Origin: an uncultured Candidatus Saccharibacteria bacterium
GTDB taxonomy: Bacteria; Patescibacteriota; Minisyncoccia; Phycocordibacterales; GWA1-40-21
NCBI GenBank assembly: GCA_964583845.1
Contig: CAZOXG010000001.1
Location: 1 to 46,660 of the forward strand
Direction: 5' to 3'
Length of the DNA: 46,660 nt
Within the stretch, counting starts at the first letter, position 1. Each line of letters begins with the position of its first letter. A program made the position numbers and the translations under genes. Below are positions 2,566 to 37,838 of this stretch, piece by piece. Below the pieces are notes generated by a model. It was not told the DNA's origin, searched no databases, and saw nothing but the letters and a program-made list of their open reading frames with translations.

Positions 2566-4908
2566 ATGAATAATACAAACAAGATTCTTAAATGGATAGT
2601 TTATGGCGGTATTTTTCTGATTCCGTTACTACCATTATTTATTTCTAGTTCCATGCTATTCCCATATATTACTGGCAAGAACTTTGCCTTTCGTATAATT
2701 GTGGAAATCATTCTCGCTGCTTGGCTAGTTCTATCTTGGAATGACAAAAACTTCCGTGGTAAGAGTTCTTGGTTGTCTTTGGCTGTCGTGGCTTTTACGA
2801 TGATTGTCGGTGTCGCTGATATATATAGTGTTAATCCAGGTAAAAGTATCTGGAGTAACTATGAGCGTATGGAAGGCTTTGTGACGATTTTTCATCTCTG
2901 GGCCTATTTCATTGTCTTGACAGCGATGTTCAAAACAGAAAAAGTTTGGCACGCTTTGTTTAATACTTTTATTGGTTCTGGTGTAATTGTCTGTCTTTAT
3001 GGTTTGGTACAGATGGGGGAGAAAGCCGCTGATTATCGTGTGGACTCAACGACTGGTAATCCTATCTATTTAGCGATTTACATGGTCTTTAGTATTTTCC
3101 TATCACTATTTCTATTGTATCGAGCTTTTGAAAAGAAGGGTGGTTTAAAGAAAATATTTGATACTCCAAGTACATATTTTTATGTACCGGTCATGATTTT
3201 GAATTTATTCATTTTATACAAAACAGCTACTCGCGGTGCATTGATAGGATTCTTGGGTGGAGTATTGGTTACGGCGATTTTGATTGCGATTTTAGAAAAG
3301 AAAGATGTCTTGTTAAAGAAAACAGCTGTCGGATGTGTGATTGGTGTTTTGATTTTAGTGGCTGGTTTCTTTGCTATTAAGGGTACGGATTTTGCCAAGA
3401 ATAATAATACTTTAGCTCGCTTATCTAATATTTCACTTAGTGATATTAAGAGTACTTCTCGCACGATTATTTATCCTATGGCCATCAAAGGTTTTCAAGA
3501 GAAACCGATTTTGGGTTGGGGACAAGAGAGTTTTAATTATGTTTTCAACAAGTACTATGATCCTCGTATGCACAGTCAAGAAGCTTGGTTTGATCGTGCC
3601 CATAGTGTATATTTAGATTGGTTGATTGCAGCTGGCTTGTTGGGTTTATTGTCTTATTTGTCCATCTATGCAATCTTATTGGTCTTGATTTGGCACACTC
3701 CTGTTGGCTCAAAAAAAATTGGTACAAATTTATTGAAGAGTATCAAGTCATCTTTCCGCTTTGGTAACCCAAAAACAGACTCGCCATTCCCGGGGGACGA
3801 ATACACTCAGTCAATTACTTTTACTATTACTGAAAGAGCTTTACTGACAGGCTTGTTGGCCGCTTATGCTTTTCACAATATTTTTGTTTTTGATTGTTTA
3901 ATTAGTTACATTTTATTCTTTACCGTTTTGGCATATGTTCATGTTCAGGAGACCACTCCGGAGTCCATGTCTTTGTCGTCTTGGCGAAGAATATTTACGG
4001 TTAATGAAGAAGTTCGGACCTTAGTTATTTTGCCAATCATGGCTATTATTTTGTTGGGTTCAATCTATTATGTTAATGGTAAGCCGATGTTGGCTAGTCA
4101 GACTTTAATAGAGGCTTTGGTTAATAATCAGGTCCCAGCTACTCTTGGGGCTACAACTACACCATCAATTGAAGCTTTTCGCCAAGCATTGGATTATAAA
4201 TCTTTTGGAGATTCAGAGATTCGTGAACAGCTGATGTCTTATGCGGGTAATCTAACTCGGACTCAGGGAGTTAGTGATGCAATCAAAAACAACGTGATGA
4301 ATTTCACTTTTGATGAATTAAATAAACAAATAAGAGTTTCACCGGAAGATTTGCGTTATCAAATATTTACTGGATCATTTTTGGATAATACCAGAAATGT
4401 TCAGCAGGCTTTGCCGTATCTTTTGACCGCTGAAAAACTTTCACCAAAAAAACAAATGGTTAAGATGGAATTGGTGAGAAACTATTTGAGTCAGGGTCTG
4501 AAAGAAGAGGCGATGACTAAGGCTAAAGAGAATTTTGAATTAGCTACCGATTTTCGTGATGGACGACTTCTCTATGTCACCACTCTGATAGTTAATGGTA
4601 AGTATGATGAAGCAGATAAAGTTTTGCGAGAAGCCAATGATCCAACTATCTTTACTGATGAACAAACATTGCTTGCTTATGTTATCGGGGGGCATCCAGA
4701 AAAAGCAATGTTGGTTTGGCAACAGCGGATCTCCGCCAAACCAAATGATCCACAAATACGCAGTAATTTCATTACTTTCTTGCTTCGAGTAGAACAAAAG
4801 GCTTTAGCTATAAATGAGTTAAGTAAGATGGGTAAGGATTTTCCTCAATATAAAGAATCTGTTGATAAGGAAATTGCAAATTTACAAGCTCAGTTGAAAA
4901 CTAAATAG
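2566..4908 (+). CDS. O-antigen ligase/polymerase-like (Wzy_C-type) multi-TM protein with a C-terminal TPR-like helical-repeat domain
   Basis: 780-aa ORF. The N-terminal two thirds is polytopic membrane protein with a large loop (..YDPRMHSQEAWFDRAHSVYLDWL..). The C-terminal ~250 aa is soluble helical repeats. Confidence 0.65.
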   Translation: MNNTNKILKWIVYGGIFLIPLLPLFISSSMLFPYITGKNFAFRIIVEIILAAWLVLSWNDKNFRGKSSWLSLAVVAFTMIVGVADIYSVNPGKSIWSNYERMEGFVTIFHLWAYFIVLTAMFKTEKVWHALFNTFIGSGVIVCLYGLVQMGEKAADYRVDSTTGNPIYLAIYMVFSIFLSLFLLYRAFEKKGGLKKIFDTPSTYFYVPVMILNLFILYKTATRGALIGFLGGVLVTAILIAILEKKDVLLKKTAVGCVIGVLILVAGFFAIKGTDFAKNNNTLARLSNISLSDIKSTSRTIIYPMAIKGFQEKPILGWGQESFNYVFNKYYDPRMHSQEAWFDRAHSVYLDWLIAAGLLGLLSYLSIYAILLVLIWHTPVGSKKIGTNLLKSIKSSFRFGNPKTDSPFPGDEYTQSITFTITERALLTGLLAAYAFHNIFVFDCLISYILFFTVLAYVHVQETTPESMSLSSWRRIFTVNEEVRTLVILPIMAIILLGSIYYVNGKPMLASQTLIEALVNNQVPATLGATTTPSIEAFRQALDYKSFGDSEIREQLMSYAGNLTRTQGVSDAIKNNVMNFTFDELNKQIRVSPEDLRYQIFTGSFLDNTRNVQQALPYLLTAEKLSPKKQMVKMELVRNYLSQGLKEEAMTKAKENFELATDFRDGRLLYVTTLIVNGKYDEADKVLREANDPTIFTDEQTLLAYVIGGHPEKAMLVWQQRISAKPNDPQIRSNFITFLLRVEQKALAINELSKMGKDFPQYKESVDKEIANLQAQLKTK

Positions 4909-11640: not shown

Positions 11641-11669
11641 TTGAATAAAAGTAATAAATATGTTATATT
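11641..11669 (+). promoter_or_regulatory. Promoter TTGAAT-17-(TGt)TATATT for island gene A
   Basis: ttgaat 11641-11646 and tatatt 11664-11669 with an upstream TG. The TTG of the -35 box is the spurious start codon used by the ORF track. Confidence 0.5.
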
Positions 11670-11757
11670 AAGGGTCGTTTCTGGTTCCTTGTTAATTAGT
11701 GTTAAGAGTGCTAAAAGCAACGGCGAAAACGCCAACAAAAAAGGAAGGGCAGTGACA

Positions 11758-12393
11758 ATGTGCATGTTCGAAGCAAAACAACTCTTTGATGAGATGAGGG
11801 ATCATATTCCTCGGATCACGGACCAAAAGTTGACCACAAAGTTGGGTCGCAAGTTGGAGTGTAACTTCTTTGGATACAGCTACCTCACAAGTAGTGCAAG
11901 TATCAAGACGTTATTACCAACATATAGCAATCTGACGATTGATCAAGCTGTATTGGTTGCGAAGCTTAGTCTGCCAGAAAACTGGAACACTACCAAGTGT
12001 CCTGGTTGGATCGGTAAATTTTACCGACTGGTGAGACATTCGCTCAAAGAGGAGTTGAGAAAGCTACCTAGCAAAGGAATTCCACTGACCCGTCAAATGG
12101 GGAGGTTGGAATTTATTCCTGCGTTGGGTACGCCACTCGATATCGTCTGGGGAGCAGACGGATTCTTTACTTTTGCCGGTGAAATAGTTGCGATCGACGT
12201 AACTGTTAATCCAGGAAAATTTTCTTCCTTGTGGAGTCCAGTGGTAATTTCCGCTGCGAGCTTTTCTCGGAGGACAAATCAAAAGTATCGGATTAATCTA
12301 GCCTGGACTTTGGCTAGAGAAGTGGCGAGAAGACTTATTGTAAGAATAATTGATAATCATATGAAAAAGGTAGTTATCAAAAATGTTGCTTAA
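11758..12393 (+). CDS. Island paralog A, hypothetical protein (211 aa from ATG 11758)
   Basis: An SD-like aggaaggg lies 8 nt upstream of ATG 11758 (MCMFEAKQLFDEMRDH..). It shares the motif series with B and C: FFG, P-x-(N/E)-W-N, G-x-x-[LF]-D-[IV]-x4-D-x-x-F, D-[VL]-T. Confidence 0.7.
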   Translation: MCMFEAKQLFDEMRDHIPRITDQKLTTKLGRKLECNFFGYSYLTSSASIKTLLPTYSNLTIDQAVLVAKLSLPENWNTTKCPGWIGKFYRLVRHSLKEELRKLPSKGIPLTRQMGRLEFIPALGTPLDIVWGADGFFTFAGEIVAIDVTVNPGKFSSLWSPVVISAASFSRRTNQKYRINLAWTLAREVARRLIVRIIDNHMKKVVIKNVA

Positions 12394-12683: not shown

Positions 12684-13232
12684 ATGATTTACCCGAGACC
12701 GGTTGACTATCCTATTGATTATTGCTTTGAAGGGGAAGAGTTCGAAAAAAACGGAAAAAGGCTTGAACAGAGTTTTTTCGGTTTTACTTTCAAAAATGAA
12801 AATCTGAACCGTCAATTTGTAATTGATTATTACCGGTCCAATATTGGTTTTGGTGAGGCTTTAGCCCAAGTCATGATCTATGGACCAAATTTTTTTCCCA
12901 ATTGGAATTCTTCTTTGCCAGACAATAACACTTATGCTAAATGGCTGTACTTTCAAGTTAGACAAACTTTGACCGACCTAAAGATCCCGGGGGACTTGAA
13001 GATATATCCTTGCCTAGGTTTCCCATTTGACGTGTGCCATGGAGTTGATGGTTTTTTTAAACTAGGGGATACAAAGTACTGCTTCTTTGATGTTACAGCT
13101 TTTAGACCGCCAGACGATCCATTAAAAAGTCAACCAAATGTGGTTGTTATTCACGAGGTGGAAATAGGGTACATGTACCGACCCCATGCCGAAGAACTGA
13201 TAAATAAGATTGTTGATCAACTGAAGGACTAG
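12684..13232 (+). CDS. Island paralog B, hypothetical protein (182 aa)
   Basis: SD agaagagg lies 5 nt upstream. Shared blocks with A are GKRLEQSFFGFTF / GRKLECNFFGYSY, FPNWN / PENWN, and GFPFDVCHGVDGFF..FFDVT / GTPLDIVWGADGFF..AIDVT. Confidence 0.75.
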   Translation: MIYPRPVDYPIDYCFEGEEFEKNGKRLEQSFFGFTFKNENLNRQFVIDYYRSNIGFGEALAQVMIYGPNFFPNWNSSLPDNNTYAKWLYFQVRQTLTDLKIPGDLKIYPCLGFPFDVCHGVDGFFKLGDTKYCFFDVTAFRPPDDPLKSQPNVVVIHEVEIGYMYRPHAEELINKIVDQLKD

Positions 13233-13405: not shown

Positions 13406-14005
13406 ATGATTTATTATACTGTTCCAAAGATTTATCATTATGGAGCTTTGTTTGAAAGGTGGTTTTTGGGCTTGCCCGATCTACATTTCATTTCGAAAGC
13501 TGAAATTGAAAAAGTAGTGGCGGAATTTAAAAATGCCAAGTCGGATTTTTTTATTCCTCTGCTAAAAGAAGTAATGTGTAATCAGCCAAAGGAATGGAAT
13601 CCCGCCAGCCCACACAACAGTCCGGCTAGTCGCCTTTTTAATTTGGTTAAAGAGAAATTGCTCAAATCGGGGAAAGTAAAAGAATCTGTGGTAAACAAAA
13701 GCCTCCGTTTTTACGTAGCGGTGGGTAGCCGTCTTGATATAATGTGTCAGACGGACTGCGCTTTTACACTTTATTGCGAAAGCGTGCATGTCACAGTCGA
13801 TCTCACGAGCAATCCCAACAAAAAGGAGAGCCACGCAGATATTATCCTGTCATTGACTGACCTTGAGTCTCTGACTGATGAGGGGAAGGCCGATGAAATA
13901 GCAAGACTTCTCATTGTTCGTTATAGATTGGAGGTAACCTACTCTCGAAAAAAACGGATTAGTTACCAGAAAAAAGGCATGAAGTTTCAATACTCTTTGC
14001 CGTGA
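13406..14005 (+). CDS. Island paralog C, hypothetical protein (199 aa), most diverged member
   Basis: PKEWN, GSRLDIMCQTDCAF...VTVDLT and EIARLLIVRY align with the corresponding blocks of A (EVARRLIVRI) and B. Confidence 0.7.
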   Translation: MIYYTVPKIYHYGALFERWFLGLPDLHFISKAEIEKVVAEFKNAKSDFFIPLLKEVMCNQPKEWNPASPHNSPASRLFNLVKEKLLKSGKVKESVVNKSLRFYVAVGSRLDIMCQTDCAFTLYCESVHVTVDLTSNPNKKESHADIILSLTDLESLTDEGKADEIARLLIVRYRLEVTYSRKKRISYQKKGMKFQYSLP

Positions 14006-36041: not shown

Positions 36042-36099
36042 TATTTGTTTTTTAGATTTCTTTGTGCTATCTTGTAATGGTTTCGGACAATATAAAAAG

Positions 36100-36175
36100 G
36101 CCGGCTTAGCTCAGTTGGTAGAGCAATAGTTTTGTAAACTATAGGTCCTCGGTTCAAGCCCGAGAGCCGGCTCCA
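36100..36175 (+). tRNA. trnT: tRNA-Thr (anticodon UGU), CCA encoded
   Basis: Acceptor stem GCCGGCU/AGCCGGC, D-arm AGCTCAGTTGGTAGAGC, anticodon stem atagt/actat with loop ttTGTaa, T-arm cctcgGTTCAAgcccgagg-like, discriminator T, then CCA. Confidence 0.93.
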
Positions 36176-36222
36176 TAAGAAAAAACACCCATTAGGGTGT
36201 TTTTTCTTATGGAGCCGGCTCT
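36163..36222. terminator. Perfect 28-bp-arm palindrome that includes the last 13 nt of tRNA-Thr (with CCA); its core is the tRNA terminator
   Basis: agagccggctccataagaaaaaacaccc atta gggtgttttttcttatggagccggctct. Confidence 0.8.
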
Positions 36223-36676
36223 GGAACATCTTTGTGGATGTTCCAGCGGTCTTGAACGCCGGAGCCAATTTTTGTTAGCAGACAAAAATGCGAGGTTGAA
36301 ATTTGGGTTGGGCCCCAAATGAAAGACCTTTTAAGATAAATTGAGCCATGCGAAATTATATCTAAAAGGTGTACTGTTCCTGTAAGGAAGTGCCCAGAGT
36401 AAAATTTTTGACGAAAAATTTTAAGTCGCGGGAAAGGTCCCGAGAGCTGGCTTTCTGGCTTGAAAGACGGAATCAAAGATTTTCAGTAGAAAATCTTGTG
36501 AGTCGGGGTCGAGACTTTTTCTGAACGACGGTGAAGAAAAAAGTCGTGACCAAGTCCAAGATTGCGATAATGATAGAAATACATTTACTCTACAAACTTA
36601 CGATAGAATCATAAACTTGATAAAGTAGGGAACTTTCTTGAAATTCCCAGGAAACACCGATTTGTCTGAATCGGAA
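36223..36676. other. ~450-nt ORF-free, densely hairpinned region; candidate large ncRNA or long structured 3' UTR
   Basis: Consecutive stems: ctggaacatc/gatgttccag; atttttgt/acaaaaat; atttggg/cccaaat; ccttttaagata/tatctaaaagg; aaaattttt/aaaaatttt; cggga/tcccg; aagatttt/aaaatctt; gactttttct/agaaaaaagtc; gggaa/ttccc; ccgatt/aatcgg. Confidence 0.35.
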
Positions 36677-36838
36677 TTAATAGCCGAGATACTCCTTCCT
36701 CAAGGATCTACGTCTCGCATCTTCCTTATCAATTTGATCGTCTTCCTCCTTCTGTATGGTGCCCATGACGAAACAGTGGATGGCGACCGGACCAAAAGTC
36801 ACTAATAAAATAATGACGACCATAGCTTGATTTGACAT
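36677..36838 (-). CDS. Unannotated 53-aa single-TM peptide (MSNQAMVVIILLVTFGPVAIHCFVMGTIQKEEDDQIDKEDARRRSLRKEYLGY); type I toxin-like
   Basis: ATG (cat 36836-36838) is preceded by aaaGGAGGTGtggt, a strong SD with 4-5 nt spacing. The stop is TAA (tta 36677-36679). A consensus promoter lies about 95 nt upstream. The peptide is below the ORF-track cut-off. Confidence 0.6.
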   Translation of the reverse strand: MSNQAMVVIILLVTFGPVAIHCFVMGTIQKEEDDQIDKEDARRRSLRKEYLGY

Positions 36839-36932
36839 ACCACACCTCCTTTCAGGATTTTACGCCAGTGGTATTTGGCGGTCAGTTTTAGACTGACGTT
36901 TGGTACATGACGAATACTTAAAACCTACATAA

Positions 36933-36961
36933 ATTATAATAATATAATCATATATTGTCAA
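36933..36961 (-). promoter_or_regulatory. Consensus sigma70 promoter TTGACA-17-TATAAT (minus strand)
   Basis: Plus-strand tgtcaa 36956-36961 and attata 36933-36938 with an exact 17-nt spacer. Confidence 0.65.
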
Positions 36962-37014
36962 GTTTTAGTAAAAAGTACAAAATGCGTTTTTTTGCTAAAA
37001 AGCTGATAAACTCA

Positions 37015-37043
37015 TTGAAACTAATAATTATAAATATTATAAT
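37015..37043 (+). promoter_or_regulatory. Promoter TTGAAA-17-TATAAT, 8 nt upstream of the GT2 ATG (leaderless-type)
   Basis: ttgaaa 37015-37020, tataat 37038-37043, ATG 37052. Confidence 0.55.
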
Positions 37044-37051
37044 AATTACAA

Positions 37052-37783
37052 ATGATTTCTGTAGTTGTAAGAATTCTTAATGAGCGAGAAAATTTAAGAA
37101 AACTCCTGGATGCACTCAAGACACAGAAGTGTTCAATACCCTTTGAAATTATTGTCGTTGATAATGAATCTACTGACGGTACTAAAGAACTAGCGTTAAG
37201 TTATGGTGTCAAAATCGTGACTTTGGCGCGTAATGACTTCTCATATCCCAAAGCAATGAATCTGGGAATTAGAAATTGTTCGGGTGAGTATGTAGTTCTT
37301 ACAGTAGGACACGCTTTACCTTTTAGTAATAACTGGTTAGAGACGGTGATTGAAAATTTTAAAGATAAAAAAAATGCCGGAATATATGGTGGACAAAAAC
37401 CTAGGACAAATGCAGACCCCTTGGAATTTATTACTTATGGTTATTGGTACCTAAGAGATATATTAAAGGGAAAAAGACTAGTCAAAAAAGGCCCAGGAAT
37501 ATTAGGGGCGACCAATTGTGCGATTAGAAAATCACTTTGGGAAAAACATTATTTTAATGAATACTACGAGTGTGGTGGTGAAGATGGAGAATGGGCAAAA
37601 TGGGCTATCAAAGAAGGGTATAATATTGTATTTGATCCAAAGTTTAGTGTAAGACATTCGCATTCCATGAAAAGCTTTGCCGATAGGAAAAAACAGTTTG
37701 CATATTGGAAAAATTTAGATAAACCAACAAAATTTACAAAAGACAGTTTGGTTTTTAGAAAGGATTTGAATTTACAAAAATAA
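37052..37783 (+). CDS. Glycosyltransferase family 2 (soluble, GT-A)
   Basis: ISVVVRILNE...EIIVVDNESTDGT... typical GT2 N-terminus plus DxD context. Confidence 0.85.
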   Translation: MISVVVRILNERENLRKLLDALKTQKCSIPFEIIVVDNESTDGTKELALSYGVKIVTLARNDFSYPKAMNLGIRNCSGEYVVLTVGHALPFSNNWLETVIENFKDKKNAGIYGGQKPRTNADPLEFITYGYWYLRDILKGKRLVKKGPGILGATNCAIRKSLWEKHYFNEYYECGGEDGEWAKWAIKEGYNIVFDPKFSVRHSHSMKSFADRKKQFAYWKNLDKPTKFTKDSLVFRKDLNLQK

Positions 37784-37838
37784 ATATATATAAAAACAGA
37801 AAGTCTTTATTTTTTAAGGGTTTTATGCTATTTTAGAG

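Follow-up and report, generated by a model that had tools for sequence, protein, structure and literature searches.

The window, by which we mean the whole 46,660-nucleotide stretch of DNA that was analyzed, derives from a member of the Paceibacteria/Parcubacteria (Patescibacteria), whose closest species representative shares 67% EF-Ts identity with it. Between a tRNA-Thr(UGU) gene and a gene for a glycosyltransferase (GT243), both on the plus strand, the minus strand carries a self-contained cassette, which comprises a promoter, a leader, a Shine-Dalgarno (SD) sequence and a 53-codon open reading frame (ORF) for a single-pass membrane peptide. The promoters of the cassette and of GT243 stand back to back, and the tRNA is followed by a hairpin and by two structured RNA modules that converge on the cassette (Table 1).

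Table 1. Features between the tRNA-Thr gene and GT243, in window coordinates
Feature	Position	Strand	Remarks
tRNA-Thr(UGU)	36100-36175	+	Encoded CCA; conserved anchor of tsf-TM-tRNA synteny
Perfect 28-bp hairpin	36163-36222		Includes tRNA 3' acceptor strand and CCA
Trailer RNA module 1	36276-36410	+	P1 hairpin, GAAAGACC, long P2 (5' strand from 36327), UGUACUG, P3
RNA module 2	36457-36560	+	GAAAGACGGAA, hairpin, UGAGUCGGGGUCG, hairpin, GUGACCAA
Two post-stop stem-loops	36674-36657 and 36648-36628	-	Candidate weak terminators, poor U-tracts
ORF, 53 aa	36677-36838	-	Starts MSNQ; TM ~residues 5-28 including FGPVAIHCF; 25-residue mixed-charge tail
Shine-Dalgarno AAAGGAGGTG	36852-36843	-	4-nt spacer, then ATG at 36838
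Leader hairpin 2	36880-36863	-	CGCCA/TGGCG
Leader hairpin 1	36897-36881	-	GTCAGT/ACTGAC
Leader	36839-36926	-	~88 nt; start site assumed ~7 nt past the -10 box
Sigma-70-type promoter	36933-36961	-	TTGACA (36961-36956), 17-nt spacer, TATAAT (36938-36933); 12/12
Divergent promoter	37015-37043	+	TTGAAA-17-TATAAT, 11/12; -10 box ends 8 nt before the GT243 ATG
GT243, 243-aa GT2 gene	37052-37783	+	Promoter back to back with the peptide promoter

Promoter, leader and coding region of the cassette

The exact TTGACA-17-TATAAT promoter that the initial annotation had placed on the minus strand is present; it is the sole 12/12 site in the 13 kb scanned and the single perfect one in the whole 46.7-kb window. 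The 10-nt SD sequence, which had been described at 4-5 nt before the ATG and is indeed found there, likewise has one occurrence in the 46.7-kb window, and these two unique elements lie on the same strand ~80 nt apart. In 1.65 Mb of Patescibacteria DNA we counted 10 perfect promoters (both strands) and 12 copies of the SD 10-mer (3.3 Mb of strand sequence), so that, at these empirical rates, a perfect promoter would have the 10-mer somewhere in the 160 nt that follow it with a chance of ~6e-4. The promoter-leader-SD-ORF layout is not a matter of chance.

Both hairpins attributed to the leader were recovered, while the leader itself is somewhat shorter than the ~95 nt given previously. In its minimum free energy (MFE) fold (-22.8 kcal/mol, z = -2.2; equaled by 3 of 200 shuffles), a closing helix spans the start codon, in that GUACCA (36906-36901) pairs with UGGUAU (36842-36837). 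The SD sequence is touched by a small UCCU/AGGA pairing, which amounts to a weak occlusion of 4 bp. Comparison of the leader with Rfam gave no match.

Translation of the ORF exactly reproduced the 53-aa product given in the initial annotation, and the single hydrophobic helix followed by a charged tail was borne out as well. There is one unambiguous TM segment, in which Kyte-Doolittle hydropathy peaks at 2.53 (19-residue span), and the 25 residues of the tail include 7 K/R and 8 D/E, which makes the tail zwitterionic, not cationic. In size and shape the peptide corresponds to type I toxins (up to ~60 aa, hydrophobic, one TM helix). With codon log-odds derived from the genes of the window, the ORF scored +0.22 in its own frame and below zero in the other five frames; 53-codon chunks of true genes score 0.30 +/- 0.24 and spurious ATG-ORFs -0.09 +/- 0.18, and 2 of 52 spurious ORFs scored as high as the ORF in question. 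Its GC3 of 0.52 is the maximum in the window, where the other genes range from 0.20 to 0.42 and 53-codon chunks average 0.31 +/- 0.08, suggesting a foreign origin of the ORF, which was probably acquired horizontally. Judged by these sequence features, we consider it quite likely that the ORF is, or until recently was, a real, acquired and translated gene for a small membrane peptide.

Relatives of the peptide

A word-indexed search of the peptide against 5.8 billion protein clusters returned the peptide itself alone, and no relative was recovered by back-translated scans of JGI metagenome contigs and IMG/VR viral contigs or by tblastn against phage and plasmid records, while tblastn against 80 related loci gave nothing above noise. 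Pfam, NCBIfam, PADLOC, and PHROGs contain no family for the peptide, even at E-values up to 10, and no paralogue was found in the window. When the whole gap between the tRNA and the glycosyltransferase gene was compared with ~200 loci by nhmmer, there was zero conservation anywhere in 36677-37051. The exact peptide is encoded on two further contigs (L001 and L002), and the locus also occurs on a third one (L203), which was reached via the neighboring GT243 gene; the four assemblies, including the window, are identical across the ORF, and the promoter and SD sequence are intact and identical in all of them. On the databases covered, the peptide is an orphan known from one lineage.

An exhaustive HMMER search over 1.84 billion representatives yielded one marginal match (library-wide E = 3e-4) to P0002, a 461-aa multi-TM protein encoded on a high-GC metagenome contig (L083) and itself belonging to no annotated family. 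Residues 6-49 of the peptide align at 44% identity with residues 5-49 of P0002, i.e., with its N-terminal anchor, and the two share the motifs LVxFGPxAxHCF and ID.ED...R.LR.E. The conserved residues (G-P, H-C-F, and ID.ED...R.LR.E) are more than hydrophobic positions, and the match has a P of 1.6e-13 in a global shuffle and ~1e-8 per comparison in a shuffle that preserves the TM segment and the tail. At ~1e-8 per comparison, a chance match among 1.8e9 proteins is possible, and homology between the peptide and P0002 is suggestive only. A profile built from the two sequences found nothing further in the 5.8 billion clusters.

As the sole relative is the N-terminus of a much longer protein, the peptide might also be the leftover N-terminus of a degraded gene for a larger membrane protein. 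However, tblastn of P0002 against the window found nothing beyond residues 5-49, so that a truncated-gene origin is unsupported; moreover, the DNA downstream of the ORF consists of conserved RNA on the opposite strand, and the expression signals are intact. We therefore regard a gene remnant as very improbable.

The tRNA-trailer RNA array and the flanking genes

The tRNA-Thr gene belongs to a class-wide synteny of the order tsf - small TM protein - tRNA-Thr(UGU) - GT532 - P292 - pheS, and in relatives the GT532 orthologue follows the tRNA at a distance of 32-400 nt (L005, L018, L025, and L030). In 80 related genomes the same site contains no peptide gene, and GT243 is likewise absent from this site in relatives, which identifies the interval 36176-37838 as lineage-specific. 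The inner part of the 28-bp hairpin behind the tRNA, AAAAAACACCC-ATTA-GGGTGTTTTTT (36185-36205), looks like a bidirectional terminator, and a hairpin of the same design is found behind a tRNA-His gene in L204.

The gap between the tRNA and the ORF measures 501 nt, ~285 nt of which belong to a structured RNA that is conserved and lies on the plus strand, as assigned from co-orientation with tRNAs. Module 1 has the consensus UGUACNG followed by a P3 stem NNCCU-GUA-AGGNN (UUCCU-GUA-AGGAA in the window), and its invariant core AAGGTGTACNGNNCCTGTAAGG, located at 36366-36387, is present on no fewer than 119 metagenome contigs. Among 70 sequences, both variable pairs of P3 alternate between CG, AU, UA, and GC, with two C:A at the inner variable pair as the only non-pairs, and in P2 10.9 of 14 positions pair, compared with 9.0 +/- 0.13 for partners re-matched at random across sequences. 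A tRNA lies within 400 nt in 62 of the 127 occurrences of the core; 54 of these 62 nearby cores are co-oriented with the tRNA, which is upstream in 43 of the 54. The distance from the tRNA 3' end to the core peaks sharply at 100-131 nt, and 16 isotypes are represented. Besides, L131 and L153 contain tandem copies, in L107 a copy precedes a 16S gene, and in L094 a copy enlarges a hairpin of 23S domain I by 84 nt. Module 2 is conserved in L100 (E = 3e-12), L123, and L201, and the conserved RNA ends ~115 nt before the stop codon of the peptide gene.

Rfam gave no match to the trailer RNA, at E-values up to 10 for the window and up to 1 for L030/L069, nor at gathering thresholds for 20 further loci. 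SRP RNA, RNase P RNA, tmRNA, 6S RNA, 5S rRNA, hammerhead and other ribozymes, T-box elements, and glycine riboswitches were dismissed by inspection, again with no Rfam match, and in the literature we found no name for this RNA. The core was present on 1 of 2.9 million IMG/VR contigs, and on this distribution the RNA is cellular, not phage-borne. Taken together, the comparative data characterize the trailer RNA as an unnamed structured RNA that is widespread in Patescibacteria, supported by covariation and usually positioned just downstream of tRNA genes.

This sheds a different light on the gap, which the initial annotation had taken for a decayed integrated element. No integrase, recombinase, or transposase remnant was found in it, there is no ORF of more than 95 aa in 36042-37051, and the six longest ORFs of the gap have no match in Pfam. 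Judged from the conserved RNA that fills so much of it, the gap consists for the most part of a tRNA-trailer RNA array that is native, not of wreckage. A 13/14 copy of the tRNA 3' end, CCCGAGAGCCGGCT, lies at 36439-36452 inside this conserved array; the repeat pair leaves the peptide gene outside, and the counterpart in L201 has no tRNA-like sequence. An inverted repeat (36613-36623/36955-36965) was discarded as a pair of transposon ends, since by our estimate chance alone should yield a 10/11 match in 1.3 kb, among the many similar short pairs there. We surmise that import probably placed the cassette between the native array and the glycosyltransferase operon.

The 1.2-kb ENA contig L002 is identical to 36100-36939 of the window at 839 of 840 positions and diverges completely from it at the 5' end of the tRNA, where the protein encoded by its flanking gene shares 60% identity with the L009 orthologue and 31% with that of the window. 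Its tRNA is a hybrid, with a 5' acceptor strand of the L009 type (GCCGCC), a T arm and 3' acceptor strand of the window type and a C5:C68 mismatch, and the crossover falls somewhere in 44 nt over which the two tRNAs do not differ. We lean slightly towards a metagenome assembly chimera, the alternative being that the tRNA was the site of a transfer or recombination event in the very recent past. L203, which stems from a sister sample, begins 10 nt before the tRNA, implying that assemblies break at this point; its divergent tail was rejected as a recombination boundary, as it represents a Nextera adapter.

A plus-strand promoter had been proposed, as a speculation, to drive an antisense RNA across the 3' end of the ORF. 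The sequence TTACGA-17-TAAAGT does exist at 36598-36626, but it matches 3/6 and 4/6 positions, i.e., 7/12, which is below the threshold of 9/12 used in our promoter scan, and no plus-strand promoter of 9/12 or better was found between 36400 and 36950. A dedicated antitoxin RNA for the peptide was thus not seen in the promoter scan of the locus, but antisense RNA may arise by read-through from the convergent trailer RNA. On the minus strand, the stem-loops behind the ORF (36628-36674) fold no better than shuffles (z = -0.4), and with such weak hairpins read-through of the cassette transcript to the bidirectional terminator is plausible.

Such read-through would be in keeping with a different function of the cassette, namely the production of a non-coding or antisense RNA aimed at the convergent tRNA-Thr/trailer-RNA unit, in which case the 53-codon ORF would be incidental. 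The promoter does point to the tRNA and the conserved RNA array, and no conservation of the peptide was found. Nevertheless, we consider an antisense RNA unlikely in view of the perfect SD sequence at ideal spacing from the ATG, the coding score that is positive in the frame of the ORF only, the clean TM-plus-tail architecture, and the match to P0002 at the protein level despite very different GC content.

Another reading starts from the product and from the divergent GT243 gene. The peptide may be a benign bitopic accessory or regulatory subunit, strongly expressed and non-toxic, whose FGPxAxHCF TM segment and acidic-basic tail bind a membrane partner, and the divergently transcribed glycosyltransferases could be that partner. 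The similarity to the anchor of P0002, including residues outside the hydrophobic positions, would suit such a role, as would the failure to see an antitoxin and the back-to-back promoter of a GT2 gene that relatives lack too. However, the P0002 match may be due to chance, as stated above, and no partner or family is known. Homologues of GT243 (59-65% identity) adjoin a Cob_adeno_trans gene and never a small peptide gene, so the peptide was rejected as a conserved partner of GT243. Besides, GT243 has a GC3 of 0.27, which is typical of the window, whereas the peptide gene is an outlier, so that co-acquisition of the two is not indicated. We judge a benign subunit to be somewhat unlikely.

Translation in the host and the tentative toxin reading

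The initial annotation had contrasted the cassette with SD-less surrounding genes, and this contrast holds: an SD-like motif precedes 2 of 34 long genes of the window, and about a third of the genes look leaderless. In 10 of 33 genes, compared with 7% of random positions, a -10-like box sits 4-13 nt before the start codon, suggesting that many neighboring mRNAs are probably leaderless; the same is implied for GT243 by the position of its -10 box. As for the very strong expression signals ascribed to the cassette, promoter and SD sequence do agree with the consensus, but their strength may have been overstated, since an anti-SD motif was detected in 48% of Parcubacteria (Tsurumaki et al., 2022, PMC9297842). 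In addition, the 16S 3' end of another Patescibacterium (L153) reads GGAUCACAUCC (...CACAUCC) instead of ...CACCUCC. The perfect SD sequence may therefore lack a ribosomal partner in this host.

These data also bear on the idea that the cassette is a recent, largely silent or inert import, in which an SD-dependent gene of the donor has met a host ribosome without anti-SD, the ORF being an evolutionary transient. The scarcity of SD sequences and the leaderless-looking genes would agree with this, and so would the GC3 of the ORF, which is raised in the other SD-led genes of the window too, and its restriction to one lineage. By contrast, the ORF, its promoter and its SD sequence have stayed intact and identical in four assemblies, and intact SD-led small genes with good terminators exist in other Patescibacteria (e.g., on L143), indicating that SD use is not abolished across the phylum. 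An inert import thus appears improbable to us.

Elsewhere in the 1.65 Mb, two near-consensus cassettes of promoter, SD sequence and start codon were detected. The one on L143 combines an 11/12 promoter, an SD sequence and a strong terminator with an ORF for a 51-aa single-TM peptide and is convergent to a trailer RNA, while on L137 a leader of 85 nt precedes the ORF of a 48-aa peptide that has no TM segment. Mini-genes of this kind hence occur in Patescibacteria, with unrelated sequences and inconsistent orientations. Five SD-led single-TM mini-ORFs have an RNA core no more than 530 nt away; a conserved module of trailer RNA and convergent mini-ORF was nevertheless rejected on account of the differing orientations and unrelated sequences.

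The most specific reading that plausibly fits the design of the cassette is a type I toxin mechanism, which we put forward tentatively. Transcription would start near 36926, and the leader would fold into its two hairpins, closed by the helix that pairs the AUG region, such that translation would need the leader to be opened or processed. The translated peptide would insert into the membrane, probably in an N-out/C-in orientation, and perturb it. Expression may be restrained by the leader fold together with convergent transcription from the tRNA-Thr/trailer-RNA unit, and possibly further by a host ribosome that perhaps lacks a canonical anti-SD.

This proposal is favored by the small size, single TM segment and polar charged tail of the peptide, by the stand-alone character of the cassette in an acquired segment of foreign composition, by the predicted pairing of the start-codon region in the leader (z = -2.2), by the tRNA-adjacent geometry convergent with RNA genes, and by the analogue on L143 that is convergent to a trailer RNA. 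It is weakened by the lack of an antitoxin promoter of at least 9/12 and the end of the conserved RNA ~115 nt short of the ORF, by the lack of a match to any toxin family, paralogue or homologue, by the zwitterionic tail, the weak occlusion of the SD sequence and a host that may lack the anti-SD, and by post-ORF hairpins that are not significantly stable. In addition, with the N-terminal anchor of P0002 as the sole relative, a structural module fits better than a generic pore-former. Of the type I toxin likeness claimed at the outset, the cassette, the single TM segment, the charged tail, and the structured leader are retained, while an antitoxin, a toxin family and relatives were not found. 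We further speculate that an imported SD-dependent toxin could do without a dedicated antitoxin, being controlled by the leader fold, antisense read-through and a weakened anti-SD, so that the mismatch between the cassette and host translation would itself be the antidote, and that the Candidate Phyla Radiation would thereby gain its first type I toxin-like module; this extended scenario, however, is a long shot.

Comparison with known systems

Sequence comparisons do not place the peptide in a described type I toxin family (Hok/Gef, Fst/Ldr, TxpA, Ibs, TisB, and others), and in the literature library that was searched we found no paper naming both type I toxin-antitoxin and Patescibacteria. 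TxpA/RatA of Bacillus is a type I toxin-antitoxin system with 3'-convergent genes. The cassette has several traits in common with TxpA/RatA and BsrG/SR4 (Bacillus). The products (38-59 aa) begin with a short N-terminus, contain a single TM segment and end in a polar tail rich in charges; the genes stand alone in an acquired region behind a strong promoter and SD sequence, and an RNA gene converges on them from the 3' side. In contrast to these systems, the peptide is a single-copy orphan with no sequence similarity to any toxin family, no antitoxin promoter was found, and the conserved convergent RNA stops short of the ORF. The long structured 5' UTR that is predicted to pair the region of translation start recalls Hok/Sok and Fst/RNAII, whereas the fold here is a thermodynamic one only that barely occludes the SD sequence, and no leader ORF, fbi/tac-like element, or antisense RNA was seen with it.

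MgrB, AcrZ, MgtS, and CydX are small bitopic membrane regulators or subunits. The peptide resembles them in size, in its single TM segment and, in some cases, in having its own promoter, but it differs by the lack of a family match and of a conserved partner gene, by the unusually long leader and by foreign codon usage. P0002 is alike over its N-terminal anchor with the two shared motifs, while it is a large protein of no annotated family, the rest of which has no counterpart in the window. Should the peptide be produced and prove membrane-active, type I toxin-like genes would extend to the Candidate Phyla Radiation, and the cassette would provide a clean natural test of a canonical SD sequence in a lineage whose genes are mostly SD-less or leaderless and in which roughly half of the members have lost the anti-SD (PMC9297842).

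The RNA at 36276-36560 invites comparison with tRNA 3' external transcribed spacers and with LOOT, ROOL, and GOLLD, which are tRNA-adjacent non-coding RNAs; it likewise lies downstream of a tRNA in the same orientation, and in L119 a trailer RNA copy adjoins a LOOT RNA (RF03000). In contrast to this group, the trailer RNA matches no Rfam family, is cellular and not phage-borne, and also occurs inside a 23S rRNA hairpin, and it may matter more than the peptide gene on which it converges.

A structured RNA trailing tRNA genes

The structured RNA in the gap between tRNA-Thr(UGU) and the peptide gene (trailer RNA, with two modules) is a widespread structured RNA without an Rfam family: its invariant core AAGGUGUACNGNNCCUGUAAGG was found in at least 119 metagenome contigs, helices P2 and P3 are backed by covariation, and a search of Rfam returned no family for it. 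Usually it lies immediately 3' of tRNA genes of any isotype and in the same orientation, in tandem copies at some loci, and it is nearly absent from IMG/VR. Because on the contig L119 the LOOT RNA (RF03000) directly follows a tRNA and a trailer RNA copy, we suggest that arrays of differing structured RNAs stand behind tRNA genes. In the 23S rRNA gene of the contig L094, a domain I hairpin has its 4-nt loop replaced by an 84-nt expansion consisting of the trailer RNA; farther along, this gene contains another insertion, about 360 nt long.

Features located in the window and in compared contigs (L numbers)
Feature	Sequence	Position	Strand	Remarks
Trailer RNA	window	36276-36410; 36457-36560	+	structured RNA
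Trailer RNA, further copies	L030; L069; L084-L202; L204	L030 7396-7478; L069 7151-7071; L204 3117-3138
Trailer RNA within 23S rRNA gene	L094	1116-1277	-
LOOT RNA (RF03000)	L119	1418-1539	+	54.7 bits
Perfect 28-bp hairpin	window	36163-36222		arm = tRNA-Thr 3' acceptor strand + CCA
Direct copy of tRNA-Thr 3' end (CCCGAGAGCTGGCT)	window	36439-36452		13/14 match
Hybrid tRNA-Thr	L002	765-840		= window 36100-36175
Mini-gene cassette	L143	9210-9431	-	stand-alone; near-consensus promoter + strong SD
Mini-gene cassette	L137	7165-7438	-	stand-alone; near-consensus promoter + strong SD
Three neighbouring genes, no assigned function	window	11641-12393; 12684-13232; 13406-14005	+
Example genes, leaderless-type -10 box	window	15826; 25339; 31405; 37052; 40364
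16S rRNA 3' end, another Patescibacterium	L153	7421-7440	-

The 3' end of tRNA-Thr

The hairpin overlapping the tRNA-Thr 3' end resembles a bidirectional terminator at its centre, and an equivalent design follows tRNA-His on another contig (L204, ~3225-3290). Such a hairpin may sequester tRNA 3' ends, or it may serve as a processing signal. The repeat of the tRNA-Thr 3' end lies within the conserved RNA array, 280 nt 3' of the tRNA, and GAGCCGGCTC is a palindrome by itself.

In L002, which also carries the peptide locus, tRNA-Thr has the 5' acceptor strand of an L009-like genome but a T arm and 3' strand of the window type; the mixed strands produce a C5:C68 mismatch. Two origins would account for this hybrid: a genuine event at the tRNA (recombination or integration), or chimeric assembly. 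L203, likewise a carrier of the locus (ERZ27300137 k141_261267, a public metagenome contig), ends in the Nextera adapter CTGTCTCTTATACACATCTGACGCTGCCGACG at 1530-1561, and its entry P0003 (195 aa) for the GT2 protein, encoded by the divergent neighbour of the peptide gene, is thus falsely truncated.

Other mini-genes and a candidate acquired block

Among the mini-gene cassettes of other Patescibacteria, that of L143 encodes a 51-aa single-TM product, has a strong terminator and is convergent to a trailer RNA adjoining tRNA-Ile, and that of L137 has an 85-nt leader and a 48-aa non-TM product. Within the window, the three neighbouring genes of no assigned function appear paralogous by eye, all have raised GC3 (0.38-0.42), and two of them are the sole other SD-led genes; the three may constitute another acquired block.

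SD scarcity and probable leaderless mRNAs

The genome is nearly SD-free, an SD preceding only 2/34 window genes. A -10-like box occurs 4-13 nt 5' of the start codon in 10 of 33 window genes, compared with 7% at random positions, and this proximity would imply that leaderless mRNAs are widespread in this genome. In L153, the 16S rRNA ends in GGAUCACAUCC rather than GGAUCACCUCC, and this mutation of the anti-SD core agrees with the anti-SD detection rate of 48% in Parcubacteria (PMC9297842).
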